This document shows, one piece after another, positions 33,597 through 40,208 of a stretch of 64,000 bases of DNA. Source of the DNA: Bacillota bacterium (GTDB lineage Bacteria; Bacillota; Limnochordia; Limnochordales; DUMU01); the NCBI GenBank assembly GCA_012839805.1, contig DUMU01000005.1, positions 31,807 through 95,806 on the forward strand, given 5' to 3'. The notes beneath the pieces were generated by a model, which saw nothing but the letters and a program-made list of their open reading frames with translations, was not told where the DNA came from and searched no databases. The translations under genes were made by a program, and so were the position numbers. Numbering within the stretch: position 1 is the first letter of the stretch; each line of letters opens with the position of its first letter.

Positions 33597-34499
33597 ATGA
33601 CTCCAAAGCCCCGCTGGTTACTACGACCGCTTCCCGATGCCCGGGCCACGGCGCAGGTGCGGCGGTTGGTGGCTGATTTGCATCTGAATACCGTCTGCGT
33701 GGATGCGGGGTGTCCGAACCTGGGTGAATGCTGGGCGAAGGGCACCGCCACCTTCATGATCCTGGGTGAACGTTGTACCCGTAATTGCGGCTTCTGTAAG
33801 GTGCAAACCGGCCGGGGAGAAGCTCTCGATCCTCTCGAACCGTGGCGGGTGGCGCAGGCGATCCGCCGGCTGGGAGTGCGGCATGCGGTGATTACTTCTG
33901 TGACCCGCGATGACCTTCCCGATGGAGGGGCAGGCCATTTTGCGGCCACCATCCGGGCCGTTCACCAGCTGAACCCGGGGGTGAGTGTGGAAGTACTGAC
34001 CCCGGACTTCAAAGGAGACCCGGCGGCTTTGCGCACCGTTCTCGAGGCGGAGCCCGAAGTATTCGCCCACAATGTGGAAACCGTCGCTCGTCTTCAGCGC
34101 CGGGTACGACCCCAGGGAGGATTCGAACGTTCCCTGCAGGTACTAAGGAAAGCGAAAGAGCTGCGACCGCAGGTGCTTACCAAATCCAGCCTCATGCTGG
34201 GACTGGGGGAGAGTCCCGAAGAGGTGCGAGAAACCATGGTGGTGGTACGGGCGCAGGGAGTCGACTTCTTCACCCTCGGCCAGTACCTGCGCCCCTCCCC
34301 GGAACACCTGCCGGTCGAGCGATTCGTCCCGCCCGAGGAATTCGAGGAATACCGGCGGTTCGGTTTGGAGATCGGGTTCCGGTACGTGGCCGCCGGTCCC
34401 CTCGTGCGCAGCAGCTACGATGCGGCGGCAGCACTGGAGGCGGTGCGGGCGGCGGCCGGAGCGCAAAAAGCGGCCGGCGACCGGAGCGGCCACCTGTAA
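33597..34499 (+). CDS. lipA: Lipoyl synthase
   Basis: CPNLGECW auxiliary cluster and CTRNCGFC radical-SAM cluster. ATG at 33597 after AAGGAGAGG. Confidence 0.93.
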
Positions 34500-34522
34500 C
34501 GGCTGGCAGGGGCTGTATCCCT

Positions 34523-37500
34523 TCAACCGGATGGTTGGCCGGATAGCCGGAGAGGGGCGACCGCTTCGGCCAGCAGAGCGGTCCTGAGCCCCCGGCGCTG
34601 GACCCGGCCCGCTACCACCAGGGCCGGGGCGCCGAACAATATGGTCCCATAGCGCTGGTATACCGGCTCGAAAGCAGTAACGTCCAACAAGCCCTCTTCA
34701 TCCTCCAAGGTGAAGAAGACCACGGTGCGGCCGCTGCGGGTGGGGGGCCGGTGGGGGCGGATCAGTAAACCCGCGACCTTAACGCGTGCTCCTTCCGGGG
34801 CGCCGGCCACTTCCCGGCTGGAGAGGATACCTTGCTTACGCAGATGGGAACGGAAAAACGAAAGGATATGACCGCTCGGACTGAACCCCAGGACGGCGAA
34901 CTCCCGGGAACTTTTTTCGAAAGGGGTAAAATCTCGCTCCTCCCCTTCTGGGGGCATTTCCAGAGGTAGGTGGAGCTGTACCTGCGAGCCCGGCAGCAAG
35001 CCTCCCCCCGGCGGGCCTGCGGGCGGCCGGTCGTTCAGGAAGGTGGGCAACTGGAAAAGCAGGGAACGCCGGTTCCTCGTGAGGGAATCAAAAGCCCCGG
35101 CCAGGATCAGGTTGGCCAGCACGTCCCGGTCGAGATCCACCCGGCGTACGAAGTCGGCGAAGCTCCCAAACGGCCCGCCGCCTTCCCGGGCCGCCAGGAT
35201 CTTGCGTACTCCCGCTTCCTTCAACCCGTCGACCTGCAGGAGGCTTGGGCGAATCGCCTGGATCTTGCGCCCGTCGTCACCTTCTACGGTTTCCACGGTA
35301 AACCTCCAGCCGTCGCTCCGGTTGACATCAGGATTGAGGGTCCTGATCCCGCGCCGGGCCGCCTCCACGACCAGCGCGTGAGGCGGGTAGAAGCCCATAG
35401 GTTGATAACTCAACAGCGCCGCGAAAAACGGGGCGGGGTAATGTTCGAGAAGGTAGGCCGTCTTGTACGCAGTGTTGGCAAAAGCGGCCGCATGGGCTTC
35501 GCAAAAGCCGTAGCCAGCATAACCTACGATGTAAGAGAAGATGGTCCGGGCGATCGCCGGCTCGATACCCCGGGATATGGCCCGGGCGATGAACTCTCCT
35601 CCAATCGCGTCCATCTCCTTTTGTGACCGGTAGTGCGTCATCACTCGCCGGAGCCGGTCGGCCTCTCCGGGCGTGAAGCCGGCCACCTGGGTGGCGATGG
35701 CGATCACCTGCTCCTGATAAAGTACGACCCCATAAGTCTTCGCCAAGATGGGTTCGAGTTCGGGAAGGAGGTAGGTCACCGGTTCCCGTCCCCGCCGGCG
35801 GGCCAGGAAAGGCTCGACCATGTCGCCCTTGATCGGCCCGGGCCGGATCAGGGCCACGCTGGCGACCAGGTCCTCGAAGCGATCCGCCCCCAGCCGGGCC
35901 TGCAGAGCCCGCTGGGCCGGACTTTCCAGCTGAAACATGCCCACCGTCTCTCCTTGGCGTATCCGTTCATACGTAGCCTCATCGTCGTCCGGGATGCTTT
36001 CCTCGGCAAAGTGGGGATCTACCGCCCGGGTGACGGCCACCGCCTGGTCAAGGGCCGAGAGCGCCCGCAAACTCAGCAGGTCCAGTTTAATCAGGCCGAG
36101 GTCTTCCACCGCGTCCTTGTCGAACTGGATGATGTCCACGCCCTTGGCAGCTACCTGAACGGGCGAAATCTCGGTGATGGGATCACGGCTAATGACCAGG
36201 CCTCCCAAGTGAGTGCCGATAAAGCGGGGAAAACCGGCGACCCGGGCGGCCAGTTGGAAGAGGAGCTGGTATCTTTCGAGGGGCAGGCCGCTGTCACGGA
36301 TCTCCGGGAGCTTGGTTACCGCCTCCGGGATGGCATCAGAGGGAAGGTACGGGAACTTCTTGGCCAGCCGATCTATCTCTTCGGCGGGGAAGCCCAGCAC
36401 TTTACCGATCTCCCGCAGGGCCGAACGGGCATGATAGGTCGAAAAGGTACAGACGGAGGCAACGTGTTCGCGGCCGTACTTGCCGTAAACGTATGCGGCC
36501 ACCCGGTCTCGATGTTCGGCGGCGAAATCGATGTCGATGTCGGGCTTTTGCGCCCGCTCCAAGCTCAGGAACCTTTCGAAGAGCAGTCTCCGCTTCCAGG
36601 CATCCACCTCCGTCAAGCCGAGGCAATAGGCCACTACCGAATCGGCGGCCGAACCGCGCCCGGCCAGCCGGATGCCTTGCCTTCTGGCAAACTGAACCAG
36701 GTCCCATACCACCAGGAAATAATCCTCCACCTGCAGGCGGGTGATCACGTCGAGTTCGTGGCGAAGGCGAGCGGCCAGGGGGGGCGGGATCGTCCCGTAG
36801 CGGTGCCTTGCGCCTGCCTCTACCAGGCGGCTGAGAAAAGATGCGGCCGACTCCTCACCTGGGGGCAGGGGATAGGTGGGAAAACGAGGCCGGGTGAGGT
36901 CGAGGGCCGGTTCACAAAGCTCGGCGATGGCCAGCGTCGCCCTCAATGCCCGGGGATAGGCCGCCCAGAGGGTGGCCATCTCTTCGCTCGTTTTTAGATA
37001 ACTTTCACCGTTGAGCGGCCGCTCCGGGTGAACTTCCTCCAGCGTGGTGCCGGTACGAATCGCAGTAAGCACATCATAAAGTGGAAAATCCTCCCGTCTC
37101 AGCTGGTGAACGGGGTTCGTCGCCACCACGGGTATGCCCAGCTTCTCCCCGAGAGCTGCCAGGGTACGGTTAAGCGTAATGCTGCGGGGAAGGCGGCGAT
37201 CCTCCAGCTCGAGGTAGAAAACGGTCAAACTGTCCCGGAAAAACCGGGCGACGGCCTCGGCCTCCCCCGGGCGGCCGGCTAAAATCAGCCGGCCGATCTC
37301 CCCTTCCCGGCCACCGGAGAGAACGATTAGATCCTGCCAGAGCTCCGGCGAGCGATCGGGGAAGGCTTCCCGGGGTAGACACGGGCTTTCCCGGGGGCTA
37401 CGGGTATGGGCCAGAGTCAACAAGCGGCACAAGTTGGCAAACCCACGCGGGTTACGAGCCAACAGGATCAGGATCGCAGTCGAGCCTCCGGGTACGAAAG

Positions 37501-37729
37501 CCGGATACCGGCGGGGGACGACCAGTTCCACCCCCTGGATGGGCCGTACTCCCGCGGCCAAGGCTTGTTTCTGAAAAGCCAGCGCTCCGCTGACATTCAT
37601 CCGGTCGGTCAATGCCAAAGCCGGCATCTCCAGCTCGGCGGCCCGGCGTACGAGCGCCTCGACGGTAGCAGTCGAACTGAGAAAAGAGAAGGTTGAGTGC
37701 ACATGCAGGTGAACGAATCCCTGCTTCAT
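34523..37729 (-). CDS. dnaE2: Error-prone DNA polymerase III alpha-type subunit (DnaE2/ImuC-like)
   Basis: PHP domain start FVHLHVHSTFSFL. About 1068 aa. C-terminal OB-fold region (VVFFTLEDEEGLLDVTAF). Lies downstream of an imuB-like gene. ATG at 37729 after GGAGAGAGAGG. Confidence 0.8.
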   Translation of the reverse strand: MKQGFVHLHVHSTFSFLSSTATVEALVRRAAELEMPALALTDRMNVSGALAFQKQALAAGVRPIQGVELVVPRRYPAFVPGGSTAILILLARNPRGFANLCRLLTLAHTRSPRESPCLPREAFPDRSPELWQDLIVLSGGREGEIGRLILAGRPGEAEAVARFFRDSLTVFYLELEDRRLPRSITLNRTLAALGEKLGIPVVATNPVHQLRREDFPLYDVLTAIRTGTTLEEVHPERPLNGESYLKTSEEMATLWAAYPRALRATLAIAELCEPALDLTRPRFPTYPLPPGEESAASFLSRLVEAGARHRYGTIPPPLAARLRHELDVITRLQVEDYFLVVWDLVQFARRQGIRLAGRGSAADSVVAYCLGLTEVDAWKRRLLFERFLSLERAQKPDIDIDFAAEHRDRVAAYVYGKYGREHVASVCTFSTYHARSALREIGKVLGFPAEEIDRLAKKFPYLPSDAIPEAVTKLPEIRDSGLPLERYQLLFQLAARVAGFPRFIGTHLGGLVISRDPITEISPVQVAAKGVDIIQFDKDAVEDLGLIKLDLLSLRALSALDQAVAVTRAVDPHFAEESIPDDDEATYERIRQGETVGMFQLESPAQRALQARLGADRFEDLVASVALIRPGPIKGDMVEPFLARRRGREPVTYLLPELEPILAKTYGVVLYQEQVIAIATQVAGFTPGEADRLRRVMTHYRSQKEMDAIGGEFIARAISRGIEPAIARTIFSYIVGYAGYGFCEAHAAAFANTAYKTAYLLEHYPAPFFAALLSYQPMGFYPPHALVVEAARRGIRTLNPDVNRSDGWRFTVETVEGDDGRKIQAIRPSLLQVDGLKEAGVRKILAAREGGGPFGSFADFVRRVDLDRDVLANLILAGAFDSLTRNRRSLLFQLPTFLNDRPPAGPPGGGLLPGSQVQLHLPLEMPPEGEERDFTPFEKSSREFAVLGFSPSGHILSFFRSHLRKQGILSSREVAGAPEGARVKVAGLLIRPHRPPTRSGRTVVFFTLEDEEGLLDVTAFEPVYQRYGTILFGAPALVVAGRVQRRGLRTALLAEAVAPLRLSGQPSG

Positions 37730-37829
37730 GACCTCTCTCTCCGTCGTATCTACGGAATCGGCCTGTCCCCGGAGGTCCACCACCAGGCCCCTTCCCCGGA
37801 GAAGGGGGGTTCAAGCCGGTCTTCAGCCC

Positions 37830-38078
37830 TCAGTCTTCGATCCGATAGAGGTACCACTCTCCGTTGGGTAGCTCCTGGTAGAGCGTGTAGCAGCCACCGG
37901 CCCCGGTACGAACCTGAAAGAAGGCTTTTGGCTTCTCTCCCTGCCACCAGCTTCCCACCTCCAGCCATGAGTCCAGGATCTCTTGAATCTCCCGGGATGA
38001 TCTGCGCCAGCGGAAGGAGAGTGGCAGGCCATGGCGGTCACAACGGACCGCCACCGGTTGGTGAAGCAAACGGCTCAC
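37830..38078 (-). CDS. 82-aa protein resembling the C-terminal module of ImuB (F.W...........I......WW...)
   Basis: The GTG start overlaps the imuB-like stop (GTGA). The sequence LPLSFRWRRSSREIQEILDSWLEVGSWWQG...GEWYLYRIED recalls the conserved ImuB C-terminus (from memory). Confidence 0.55.
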   Translation of the reverse strand: MSRLLHQPVAVRCDRHGLPLSFRWRRSSREIQEILDSWLEVGSWWQGEKPKAFFQVRTGAGGCYTLYQELPNGEWYLYRIED

Positions 38079-39154
38079 TTGGCCAGGTACACCTCCTGCA
38101 CCATTCGGTGAACTGCCTCCCTCCTATCCATCCGGATATCGCTCGCCCGCCGGACGGCGTACGGGCCGAACCGCTGGCGCAACCAGACCAGGAGTTGCTC
38201 CAAACGAGGATCCCGGCCATTTGTGCCGCCGGCCCGGCGGCGGGCGGGGAGCGGAATCAAGGACGCCTGCTCGCAGGGAACGGGGGAAAGCTCTTCGGCC
38301 CGTAAAGTGAGTTGCCCGCACCCCTGCAATCGGACCGGGGGATGGGAGCGCAATTGGGCGAGGAGACGGCGGGCCAACTCATCACCGTGGATCGAGAGCC
38401 GGCGCTGGTCCCCAGGTACGGGAGCGGGTGGCCGGACGACCACCGTGACCATGGGAATGAGTTCGAGGGTTAGCGAGGCGGCAGCCCAACCCCCGGCGGC
38501 CAACTTATGGGCGATTTGCCGGACGAGAACGGAAGTAGTGGAGGAAATCTCTTCGATCCGGGCGATGGGACGCTGAACCTCCAACCAGAGAGGCTGCTTT
38601 CCCGATCGGATCGGTAGCTCTTCTTCCCCGCGGATTCTCCTCAACAGCTGGGCGCCAGTCTCGAGGCCGGCCTGGGCCAGGAGCTGGGCCGGGGAAAGAT
38701 CGGCCAGTTGTCCCCAAGTGCGGATCCCTAATTGCTCGAACCTTTGACAGGTATCGACGGGGAGATCCTTTGTCCAGCGCAAGGGTATGAAGCGGAGGTA
38801 TTCCCACTCCCTGCCAGGCAGAACAATCTCGAAGCTCGTCTTCCCGCGCCCCCTGGCCTTGGCCCGGCGGGCCGCCATCTCGGCTACGAAACGACGGGTA
38901 GCCCAACCCAGCGCCGGGAAATCTCCTGCCCCATCTGCCGCTGCCTCAGTTATATCCTCAGCCAGGCCGGGTACGAGGAGGTGACTCCCCGGGACATTGG
39001 AAAGATCGAGGAAAACTAGATCCGGCTGGACGATCTCGATGTTTTCGGTATAATTGAGACAAACTCTCAGTAATGGTTGGGCTGCTCGTACGTCGACTTT
39101 CCCACCGGCCGATACATAGTAATGAGAAAGGAGAATGCAGGCTATTTGGGTCAT
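38075..39154 (-). CDS. imuB: ImuB-like catalytically degenerate Y-family polymerase (N-terminal 359 aa)
   Basis: Y-family-like layout (IACILLSHY..., LVFLDLSNV). The first catalytic Asp and the Asp-Glu pair are not conserved. ATG at 39154 after GAGGGGA. Located upstream of dnaE2. Confidence 0.7.
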   Translation of the reverse strand: MTQIACILLSHYYVSAGGKVDVRAAQPLLRVCLNYTENIEIVQPDLVFLDLSNVPGSHLLVPGLAEDITEAAADGAGDFPALGWATRRFVAEMAARRAKARGRGKTSFEIVLPGREWEYLRFIPLRWTKDLPVDTCQRFEQLGIRTWGQLADLSPAQLLAQAGLETGAQLLRRIRGEEELPIRSGKQPLWLEVQRPIARIEEISSTTSVLVRQIAHKLAAGGWAAASLTLELIPMVTVVVRPPAPVPGDQRRLSIHGDELARRLLAQLRSHPPVRLQGCGQLTLRAEELSPVPCEQASLIPLPARRRAGGTNGRDPRLEQLLVWLRQRFGPYAVRRASDIRMDRREAVHRMVQEVYLAK

Positions 39155-39222
39155 GACGATCCCCTCGCCGTTGTTCCTGCAATACCTTGGGGGGAAAAGA
39201 GCGTGACCAAACCGGCGTTCGG

Positions 39223-39236
39223 GAAACAGATGTTCG
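39223..39236 (-). promoter_or_regulatory. Cheo-type LexA (SOS) box CGAACATCTGTTTC
   Basis: On the minus strand it matches the Bacillus consensus CGAACRNRYGTTYC at 13/14 positions. It lies 5 nt downstream of the -10 hexamer and about 70 nt upstream of imuB. Confidence 0.65.
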
Positions 39237-39241
39237 CTTAT

Positions 39242-39269
39242 ATTATAGCCAGCCGGGCCAAGGTGGCAA
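39242..39269 (-). promoter_or_regulatory. Sigma-A-type promoter TTGCCA-N16-TATAAT for imuB-dnaE2
   Basis: Minus-strand TTGCCA (39269-39264) and TATAAT (39247-39242). Confidence 0.6.
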
Positions 39270-39605
39270 GGGGAGGTGGCACTTTCCCGGCCGGAACTTT
39301 TTCCCGCCACGCGTAAACCGGACCACCCTGGGAAATCCTCATTAACGAGCCCCACTCTGACTTGGCAGGAAAAAGAGAGCCGGCGACGAAGTCTTCACCA
39401 AACCCGATACTGTTCACGGCCTGTTTCCCGCATCGTTCCCAGTAGATTGCCGTTTCGTTCCGGTTTGACCGGCGCTCCAAGGTCCGGCAGCCTTACCGCC
39501 CAAGGAAGAGGAAAGCGACGGCTTACGGCAGGAATGGCCTCATCAGCGGCTGACGAGGTAGCAGATCACAACCCGGGAGCGAACACTCGGAAAGAGGTGA
39601 GGGCT

Positions 39606-40208
39606 GTGAATGCGAAAAGGGAGGTCCTCATTCGGTTCAGCAGCCTGCCGTTGAAAGACCCGCGCAGCCGAGCGGTGCTCCGCCTGCTCCAGGACGACCG
39701 TTTCCTGCCTCGCATCTCGTTCGTCACCAATCGCGACCTTCTGCCCAACACCCTGCTGATCGCCGAGGCGGGGAGCGATGCCATTCCCTTCGAGCTGGAA
39801 TTGGGTGCGGTTCAGCAGGAGGAAGTCTCCCTGGTCAACGGCCACCTGGTTCGCCACGTACACCGGACCCGCACGCTCTGTATACACGACCCGCTCCGAG
39901 CCATACGTCCATTGCAACTTTTCCAGGGGAGGCTTTATGTGCTGCTGGCATTCGCCCAGGAAACCCCGGCTTGGTATCGGGTGGTCACCGAACCCAACCC
40001 GGCGCTGCCGGTGCCGAGCGAGGCTCGCCAGAGCATCGACAGCGTGTTGCGCCAGATCGTCCGTGACCAGGTGGATCTAGCTCTGCACGCCATTCTCAGC
40101 CGCCACGAAGTGGAGGAGGCTTTGCGGGAGCGGGACAAGGAGCGCTTCCTCCGGGCGGCCGGGCTCTATAACCAGCTTCGTGACCGTTGTCTGATCGATT
40201 TCGAGTAG
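39606..40208 (+). CDS. YpiB-like protein with a C-terminal IDEAL domain
   Basis: GTG at 39606 after AAGAGGTGAGGG. The C-terminal EVEEALRERDKERFLRAAGLYNQL fits the IDEAL motif. The track's N-terminal 110 aa are rejected. Confidence 0.55.
   Translation: MNAKREVLIRFSSLPLKDPRSRAVLRLLQDDRFLPRISFVTNRDLLPNTLLIAEAGSDAIPFELELGAVQQEEVSLVNGHLVRHVHRTRTLCIHDPLRAIRPLQLFQGRLYVLLAFAQETPAWYRVVTEPNPALPVPSEARQSIDSVLRQIVRDQVDLALHAILSRHEVEEALRERDKERFLRAAGLYNQLRDRCLIDFE

Follow-up and report, generated by a model that had tools for sequence, protein, structure and literature searches.

The operon type that concerns us here was published for Kyrpidia tusciae by Timinskas & Venclovas in 2019 (PMC6511836). A later survey (NAR 2026; PMC12926913) named it 'DnaE2X-iPolY-ImuBC-RecA' and supported it by AlphaFold models. 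In Bacillota, the architecture has been described for K. tusciae and Alicyclobacillus acidocaldarius (PMC6511836; PMC12926913). Genomes with a DnaE2X or DnaE2B polymerase are reported to lack imuA and imuB altogether, and the housekeeping RecA has been proposed as the replacement of ImuA (PMC6511836; PMC12926913). The system occurs with all three types of replication system and has been suggested to be ancestral to ImuA-ImuB-DnaE2 (PMC12926913). For Thermaerobacter marianensis, the survey table lists one DnaE1, one DnaE2X and no PolC (PMC12926913). Among the cultured Bacillota, there is thus at least one species that has a replicative enzyme besides its DnaE2X. Here, we describe a three-gene operon from contig DUMU01000005.1, located in a stretch of 64 kb that was analyzed as a whole and is referred to as the window. 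It very probably is a DNA-damage-inducible operon for error-prone synthesis that belongs to the DnaE2X type with a split ImuB.

A preliminary description of the window, made from the sequence alone, had presented this locus as a LexA-box-controlled imuB-dnaE2 cassette lacking imuA, and all elements it described are present where it had placed them. It had also implied that such a cassette is new for a Bacillota-like genome. This novelty does not hold, since the arrangement is already contained in both publications (PMC6511836; PMC12926913) and since we found the order iPolY-ImuB-C-DnaE in about 72 other species-level genomes, mostly metagenome-assembled genomes (MAGs) of Bacillota. These come from a set of 80 loci encoding relatives of the DnaE protein, with one genome per species, in which the upstream orthologues were located by iterated local hidden Markov models (HMMs).

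Organization of the operon

The operon is encoded on the minus strand in the order promoter, two tandem LexA boxes, iPolY, ImuB-C and DnaE2. Its features are as follows (nt, nucleotides; aa, amino acids; ORF, open reading frame):

39242..39269, minus strand: sigma-70-type promoter with -35 TTGCCA (39269-39264), 16-nt spacer and -10 TATAAT (39247-39242); 11 of 12 consensus matches
39223..39236, minus strand: predicted LexA (Cheo-type) box 1, CGAACATCTGTTTC, 5 nt downstream of the -10; sequence and footprinting
39208..39221, minus strand: predicted LexA (Cheo-type) box 2, CGAACGCCGGTTTG, 1 nt after box 1; sequence and footprinting
38075..39154, minus strand: iPolY, 359 aa, ATG at 39154, stop at 38075, ribosome-binding site GAGGGG; ORF reading
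38255..38269, minus strand: QASLI, putative motif for binding of the beta clamp, within a linker predicted to be disordered (iPolY residues 296-300); conservation
38147..38218, minus strand: RecA-NT-like motif GRDPRLEQLLVWLRQRFGPYAVRR, iPolY residues 313-336; family consensus and hhalign
37830..38078, minus strand: predicted standalone ImuB-C (DUF6504), 82 aa, GTG start; ORF, Pfam and hhalign
34523..37729, minus strand: predicted DnaE2 (X group), 1068 aa, ATG at 37729, ribosome-binding site GAGAGAGG; ORF, Pfam and identity comparison

The promoter is the top-scoring promoter-like site within positions 34200-39700. A maximal ORF of 426 aa was rejected as the real iPolY gene because it runs across this promoter. 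The GTG start of ImuB-C overlaps the TGA stop of iPolY (GTGA), which suggests translational coupling of the two genes, and 100 nt separate ImuB-C from DnaE2. An identical iPolY sequence is listed at NCBI for a 'Firmicutes bacterium' MAG, where it is annotated as hypothetical protein GXX55_00850. The closest relatives of the DnaE protein, with 77-79% identity, are found in Limnochordales and Limnochordaceae MAGs.

Judged from sequence, the cassette is a member of the known DnaE2X-iPolY-ImuBC-RecA type, because all three proteins link directly to published examples. Like the K. tusciae-type operon, it encodes a predicted inactive Y-family protein with putative C-terminal clamp and RecA-NT-like motifs, an ImuB-C of about 80 aa and a DnaE2 without the C-terminal domain, in the same order, without imuA and in a Bacillota host. 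It differs in that the iPolY proteins of the window and of three Limnochordales relatives are devoid of the fingers segment, and in that the window operon contains no lexA gene and would be controlled via two tandem LexA boxes. Furthermore, its host is an uncultured Limnochordia-like MAG and not a member of the Alicyclobacillaceae.

Conservation of the gene order and absence of imuA

In 73 loci, the gene immediately preceding that of the DnaE orthologue encodes ImuB-C, and iPolY is found upstream of the ImuB-C position in 74. A total of 72 loci have both genes, which overlap or are at most 30 nt apart in 60 cases. Three loci have an interrupted iPolY/ImuB-C junction (L028, 4978-7743; L015, 3368-4183; L050, 6931-7748). 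The insert in L028 is an 864-aa gene on the opposite strand, while those in L015 and L050 resemble each other, measure about 0.8 kb, contain no convincing ORF and may represent either a mobile element or an RNA. Bacillota-type cassettes were also encountered in MAGs labelled Chitinophagales, Ignavibacteriales, Bacteroidota, Acidobacteriota and Betaproteobacteria (L014, L032, L054, L066 and L076). The contigs carrying them stem from PRJNA950955 and PRJNA951521, and the DnaE2 of L054 is 79% identical to that of the window. Mis-binning seems a better explanation for these cases than horizontal transfer.

Searches of all six-frame ORFs of the window revealed no homologues of RecA, ImuA or LexA; for RecA and ImuA, phmmer was run with E. 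coli RecA, the RecA-like protein of Thermomicrobium roseum and Agrobacterium ImuA as queries. This agrees with the preliminary description, in which no RecA- or ImuA-like gene had been seen in or next to the cassette. In the flanks of the 80 loci (up to 8 kb on each side), a RecA/ImuA homologue was found only in L077 from Thermalbibacter, where ImuB is fused, and a lexA gene only in L038.

An ImuA-like partner could still be encoded elsewhere, and the cassette would then belong to a dispersed canonical ImuA-ImuB-DnaE2 mutasome that does not depend on RecA. Only 64 kb of the genome are visible, and ImuA is easily missed because ImuA proteins are very divergent; Agrobacterium ImuA itself gives no Pfam match. 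Against this stand the negative searches of the window and of the flanks, with L077 as the only hit, as well as the published reports that DnaE2X and DnaE2B genomes are devoid of imuA and imuB (PMC6511836; PMC12926913). We consider a dispersed canonical system highly improbable and favor an operon that functions without ImuA.

Tandem LexA boxes upstream of iPolY

The preliminary description had proposed control of the cassette by a LexA box. We found two such boxes in tandem rather than one, both of which differ at a single base (GTTT) from the GAAC-N4-GTTC core. An exact search of the window for GAAC-N4-GTTC gave two matches, no more than expected by chance, and misses both real boxes because each of them has GTTT.

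Conservation was assessed in the 67 related loci that have enough upstream sequence. Boxes with at most one core mismatch occur within 200 nt upstream of the iPolY start in 62 of them, compared to a background in the same loci, with the same tolerance, of 0.076 sites per 210 nt. On these numbers, chance matches were rejected as an explanation for the boxes of the window. The boxes are usually located 25-70 nt upstream of the iPolY start and are often duplicated; tandem boxes 13-16 nt apart (start to start) are also present in L005, L007 and L009-L013. Four of the five loci without a box have the most divergent DnaE proteins (41-47% identity) and come from two Armatimonadota MAGs and two genomes without a phylum-level label; the fifth is Thermalbibacter. 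Control of the cassette by LexA as part of the SOS response is therefore well supported by phylogenetic footprinting, which bears out the earlier proposal.

iPolY, a predicted inactive and reduced Y-family scaffold

Single-sequence searches gave little information on iPolY: a word-indexed homologue search found only the protein itself, and NCBIfam returned weak DNA polymerase IV matches (E 8e-10, well short of the cutoff). With a profile built from 32 family members, DNA polymerase IV (7yll) was matched in the PDB at an E value of 5e-64, as were the structures of Rev1, Dpo4, Dbh, pol iota and pol eta. The AlphaFold2 (AF2) model of the window protein has a mean predicted local distance difference test (pLDDT) value of 80.9, and Foldseek aligned it with Rev1, Dpo4, DinB and Dbh at probability 1.0 and E ~1e-13. 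The family HMM also detects the published iPolY proteins of K. tusciae (ADG05750, E 5.8e-44) and A. acidocaldarius (ACV58045, E 4.1e-34).

For the active site, the protein was aligned with 7yll, an active Pol IV, and with Dpo4. L8 and S10 stand at the aspartates of the beta1 D-x-D motif. At the second site, D45-L46 replaces D-E; the S-I-D-E motif reads Q-P-D-L, with the catalytic glutamate changed to L46. None of the 32 aligned family members has an aspartate at either D-x-D position. Because both the D-x-D aspartates and the catalytic glutamate are substituted, iPolY is predicted to be catalytically dead, in agreement with the loss of catalytic residues that had been suspected for the ImuB-like protein before.

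A fingers segment of about 45-55 residues is missing from the iPolY proteins of the window and of three Limnochordales relatives and is kept by all other family members. According to the family alignment, the fingers-less proteins of the relatives are encoded at the following positions:

L001, 8910-10004: iPolY without fingers segment
L005, 6628-7740: iPolY without fingers segment
L006, 1529-2623: iPolY without fingers segment

The Limnochordales proteins keep beta1, a palm remnant, the thumb, the little finger, the clamp motif and the RecA-NT-like helix, and the window protein has 359 aa compared to 402-429 aa in the published examples. They may represent the most reduced scaffold of this type of system.

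Two motifs follow in the C-terminal part. The first, QASLI, presumably binds the beta clamp: Q296 is at least 90% conserved, the family consensus reads QxxLF (general form QxxL[FI]), and pLDDT values below 50 across residues 296-312 point to a disordered linker. The second belongs to the RecA-NT motif class described in PMC6511836. It reads LEQLLVWLRQRFG... and has the right form and position, and a helix is predicted at residues 316-329. The family consensus of this helix is L..L..L..KFG (L..L..L..[KR]FG) and is followed by a conserved RRE (R344, R345). These features point weakly to the presence, in form, of a RecA-NT motif in the iPolY tail.

Between the window and L001, L005 and L006, iPolY is 42-46% identical, ImuB-C 71-72% and DnaE2 77-81%. 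By these values, the Limnochordales iPolY evolves much faster than its partners ImuB-C and DnaE2. Such rapid divergence, together with the loss of a segment that all other family members have, would also fit a cassette that is a decaying remnant, with a scaffold and a system that no longer function. But all three ORFs are intact, and the four diverged genomes that share the deletion have all kept the clamp motif, RecA-NT-like helix, RRE tail, start/stop overlap and LexA boxes. Moreover, the AF2 model of iPolY is well folded (pLDDT 81), and published canonical ImuBs include drastically reduced forms that keep the thumb, the little finger and ImuB-C (PMC12926913). Decay is therefore very unlikely, and we retain the interpretation of iPolY as a reduced scaffold within an operon that probably functions.

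The 82-aa protein, a predicted standalone ImuB-C

The preliminary description had placed an anonymous 82-aa ORF between the two larger genes. Its position stands, but the ORF is not anonymous. It is matched by Pfam PF20114 (DUF6504; E 1.9e-11) and is 48.8% identical to K. tusciae ADG05749 and 39% identical to A. acidocaldarius ACV58046. A word-indexed search gave only two close relatives; when 1.84 billion cluster representatives were searched exhaustively with HMMER, 407 relatives were obtained at E ≤0.001. Among the 150 of these that were listed, nearly all are standalone proteins of about 80 aa, and no canonical ImuB is included. Therefore, homology to the ImuB C-terminus required a profile-profile comparison. 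Hhalign of 40 standalone ImuB-C proteins against six ImuB C-termini yielded a probability of 95.5% and an E value of 1.6e-8. In the canonical ImuB proteins of Gluconobacter, Agrobacterium and Thermalbibacter, the ImuB-C HMM matches the very C-terminal end, and all three proteins are encoded directly upstream of an annotated error-prone polymerase; the Pfam model DUF6504 matches the Agrobacterium C-terminus weakly (E 0.0087). Because Pfam, HMM and hhalign all link it to ImuB C-termini, the 82-aa ORF is identified by homology as a standalone ImuB-C, with 'ImuB' split into two genes.

The AF2 model of this protein (pLDDT 89) is an all-beta structure of seven strands for which Foldseek found no structural neighbour in the PDB (best E 0.6). 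The model fits the description of ImuB-C in the literature as a beta-barrel with a new fold (PMC12926913).

Two plasmid loci deserve mention in this context. On the Sphingobium plasmid pTomTYG64b (L090, 3202-3492), a 96-aa 'hypothetical protein' is a standalone ImuB-C (HMM E 7e-8) encoded directly upstream of dnaE2-2, with no Y-family gene annotated beside it. A Gluconobacter plasmid (L088, 3264-3497) carries a 77-aa ORF between full-length ImuB and DnaE2 that is not matched by the ImuB-C HMM.

Assignment of the polymerase

Pfam assigns PHP, Pol III alpha (Pol3) core, finger, HhH and OB domains to the DnaE protein; the OB domain comes last, covering residues 1001-1065 of an ORF of 1086 aa. The E. 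coli and Taq DnaE1 chains run about 100 residues past the end of the alignment. Because the solved DnaE1 chains extend that much further, the window protein lacks the C-terminal domain for tau binding, which is absent from all DnaE2 proteins (PMC3919608). The PHP ligands are S, R and P, compared to D, H and D in the metal-restored E. coli PHP structure 4jom. The polymerase aspartates are kept in PDIDIDF and KLDLLSL, which we take to correspond to E. coli D401, D403 and D555. No DnaE2 structure was found in the PDB.

For comparison with labelled polymerases, we used the DnaE2X and DnaE2A sequences from the supplementary data of the 2026 survey, which also provided the iPolY and ImuB-C references (PMC12926913). 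Over the N-terminal 400 aa, the window protein is most similar to the DnaE2X proteins of K. tusciae (47.6%, 332 bits) and A. acidocaldarius (45.1%, 288 bits), followed by E. coli DnaE1 (34.6%, 209 bits) and four DnaE2A proteins (31-35%, 150-193 bits). The best annotated plasmid match is the 'error-prone DNA polymerase' of Thermomicrobium roseum with 40% identity. In a rough neighbour-joining (NJ) tree, which contains very few DnaE1 references, the window protein groups with 23 operon-linked orthologues in a separate clade that lies next to DnaE2A but is distinct from it, from the L077/T. roseum proteins and from E. coli DnaE1. The DnaE2-type assignment of the preliminary description is sustained by this grouping on the DnaE2 side, by the proximity to DnaE2X, by the missing tau-binding domain and by the substituted PHP ligands. 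On the sequence evidence, the polymerase is of the DnaE2 type (X group) and not a replicative DnaE.

A replicative or primer-extending DnaE1 or DnaE3 that is SOS-regulated like B. subtilis dnaE, preceded by a decayed dinB, has to be weighed against this assignment. NCBIfam cannot separate error-prone from replicative DnaE here because its top match, the error-prone polymerase model NF004225 (854 bits), nearly ties with that for DnaE (Pol III alpha; 840 bits), both below cutoff. The identity to E. coli DnaE1 (34%) is close to that with proteobacterial DnaE2A (33-36%). Some DnaE3 proteins are also without the C-terminal domain and SOS-inducible (PMC3919608), and our view of the genome is restricted to the window. 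But the protein is clearly nearest to DnaE2X, and T. marianensis carries a DnaE1 besides its DnaE2X (PMC12926913). In the 73 loci mentioned above, the orthologues are always encoded behind ImuB-C and nearly always together with iPolY and LexA boxes. Neither of two traits of replicative DnaE1/DnaE3 was found: the window protein is without the tau-binding domain that is typical of DnaE1, and the gene has no housekeeping context, being the third cistron behind LexA boxes in the window and in 72 loci. It is thus most improbable that the operon encodes a replicative enzyme, and we treat the protein as DnaE2X in the following.

Comparison with other mutasomes

The canonical ImuA-ImuB-DnaE2 systems (ImuABC) of Proteobacteria and Actinobacteria, as in Mycobacterium tuberculosis, Caulobacter crescentus, Pseudomonas aeruginosa and the Agrobacterium plasmid pAt, share with the window operon the SOS control, a dead Y-family scaffold with clamp and RecA-NT motifs (putative in the window), the ImuB-C module and an error-prone DnaE2. 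In contrast, the window operon contains no ImuA, its ImuB is split, and its DnaE2 falls into the X and not the A group. It lacks two defining features of ImuABC because there is no ImuA and ImuB is not fused.

The operons of T. roseum and Thermalbibacter longus encode a polymerase that is 40-43% identical to that of the window, with a short inactive Y-family protein directly upstream. This polymerase is the closest one annotated as error-prone in the plasmid collection, and the proteins of the two species are the nearest annotated outgroup of the window DnaE (41-43% identity). The operons differ by the presence of a RecA-like (ImuA3-type) gene and by the fusion of ImuB-C to the Y-family protein. 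In both, on the T. roseum megaplasmid (L086, 2715-8180) and in T. longus (L077, 5710-11159), the RecA-like gene is accompanied by short fused ImuB and DnaE2; these ImuB proteins have about 405-416 aa, the N-terminal palm is missing, and Pfam recognizes only IMS_C.

E. coli Pol V (UmuD'2C-RecA) and B. subtilis YqjW-YqjX-RecA likewise combine an SOS-induced Y-family protein carrying a RecA-NT motif with a small beta-rich subunit and RecA. But their Y-family subunit is an active polymerase, no C-family polymerase is involved, and their accessory subunit (UmuD'/YolD, SH3-like) has no relationship to ImuB-C.

A model for the function of the operon

Based on these comparisons, we propose the following model. 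In the undamaged cell, LexA bound to the two tandem Cheo boxes right after the -10 would block transcription. DNA damage would activate RecA, LexA would undergo self-cleavage, and iPolY, imuB-C and dnaE2 would be transcribed together. As a dead, fingers-less Y-family scaffold, iPolY would tether the complex to the beta clamp by its QxxL[FI] motif, and its RecA-NT-like helix would bind the housekeeping RecA, which would take ImuA's place. The small beta-barrel ImuB-C would bridge to the PHP domain of DnaE2. With its intact polymerase site, degenerate PHP domain and no tau-binding domain, DnaE2 would then perform error-prone synthesis or bypass. We infer LexA binding, co-transcription, complex formation, the participation of RecA and mutagenic activity from the literature.

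A number of points weigh against the interpretation as a damage-inducible DnaE2X operon. The published support for the DnaE2X type is computational and consists of AlphaFold models (PMC12926913). It is assumed that the genome also has recA, lexA and a second, replicative polymerase and that no imuA exists outside the window. The near-tie of the NCBIfam models, the few DnaE1 references in the NJ tree and the one-base deviation of both LexA boxes count on the same side. For the RecA-NT motif, hhalign placed the top local match between the family C-tail profile and full-length RecA at RecA residues 6-29 with P 0.02, which is modest support, and the resemblance was not significant by hmmsearch (E 0.18). 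Finally, the function of the window iPolY may be reduced or altered, because the fingers are missing and the protein is only 42-46% identical to its closest relatives.

Surroundings of the operon

The window has a G+C content of about 63% along its whole length, and Rfam and tRNA scans of it gave no matches. Its other large ORFs are unrelated to replication and include an RND pump, PBP1, an NAGidase, a P-type ATPase, an NFACT protein, ABC components and others. One further feature is located downstream of the operon:

34471..34483, minus strand: terminator-like hairpin and T-run about 40 nt past the DnaE2 stop, within the 3' end of the convergent lipA; consensus match only

Terminator-like sites are no more numerous in this region than in shuffled sequence. 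Another minus-strand hairpin of this kind (39401-39380) lies just upstream of the cassette promoter.

The divergent neighbour (39276-40208, plus strand) had been called an unrelated IDEAL-domain protein. We identified it as a UPF0302/ReoY-like protein; VEEAL...DKERF at its C-terminus resembles the IDEAL motif by eye, but the Pfam scan of the protein did not report the IDEAL domain itself. The conserved part of the 310-aa ORF begins only at about residue 120, which leaves some 400 nt between this neighbour and the cassette promoter. The neighbour is not kept in related loci; L001, for example, carries a multicopper oxidase gene at this place.

Implications

None of these results overturns the current understanding. 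They extend the hosts of the ImuA-less split-ImuB system to a Limnochordia-like lineage and to dozens of MAG species. With respect to annotation, two 'hypothetical proteins' (GXX55_00850, i.e., iPolY, and the 82-aa DUF6504 protein) would become named parts of an SOS mutasome, and the DnaE protein of this operon should not carry the label of replicative Pol III alpha.

Two minor points are new, namely the frequency of the cassette among uncultured Bacillota and the fingers-less iPolY of the Limnochordales. We tentatively propose, as an idea that could still go either way, that the split-ImuB DnaE2X cassette is a common SOS mutagenesis module of uncultured Bacillota (Limnochordia, Syntrophomonadaceae, Peptococcaceae and Symbiobacterium-like lineages) and that the Limnochordales iPolY is a minimised, fingers-less protein representing the smallest compatible scaffold. 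If true, a common module would contrast with the description of this group as 'small' and with the older rule that DnaE2 avoids Firmicutes and PolC genomes. The smallest scaffold would then consist of a palm remnant, thumb, little finger, clamp motif and RecA-NT-like helix. With such a naturally fingers-less scaffold, it could become easier to tell what is required of the dead Y-family subunit and what is dispensable.

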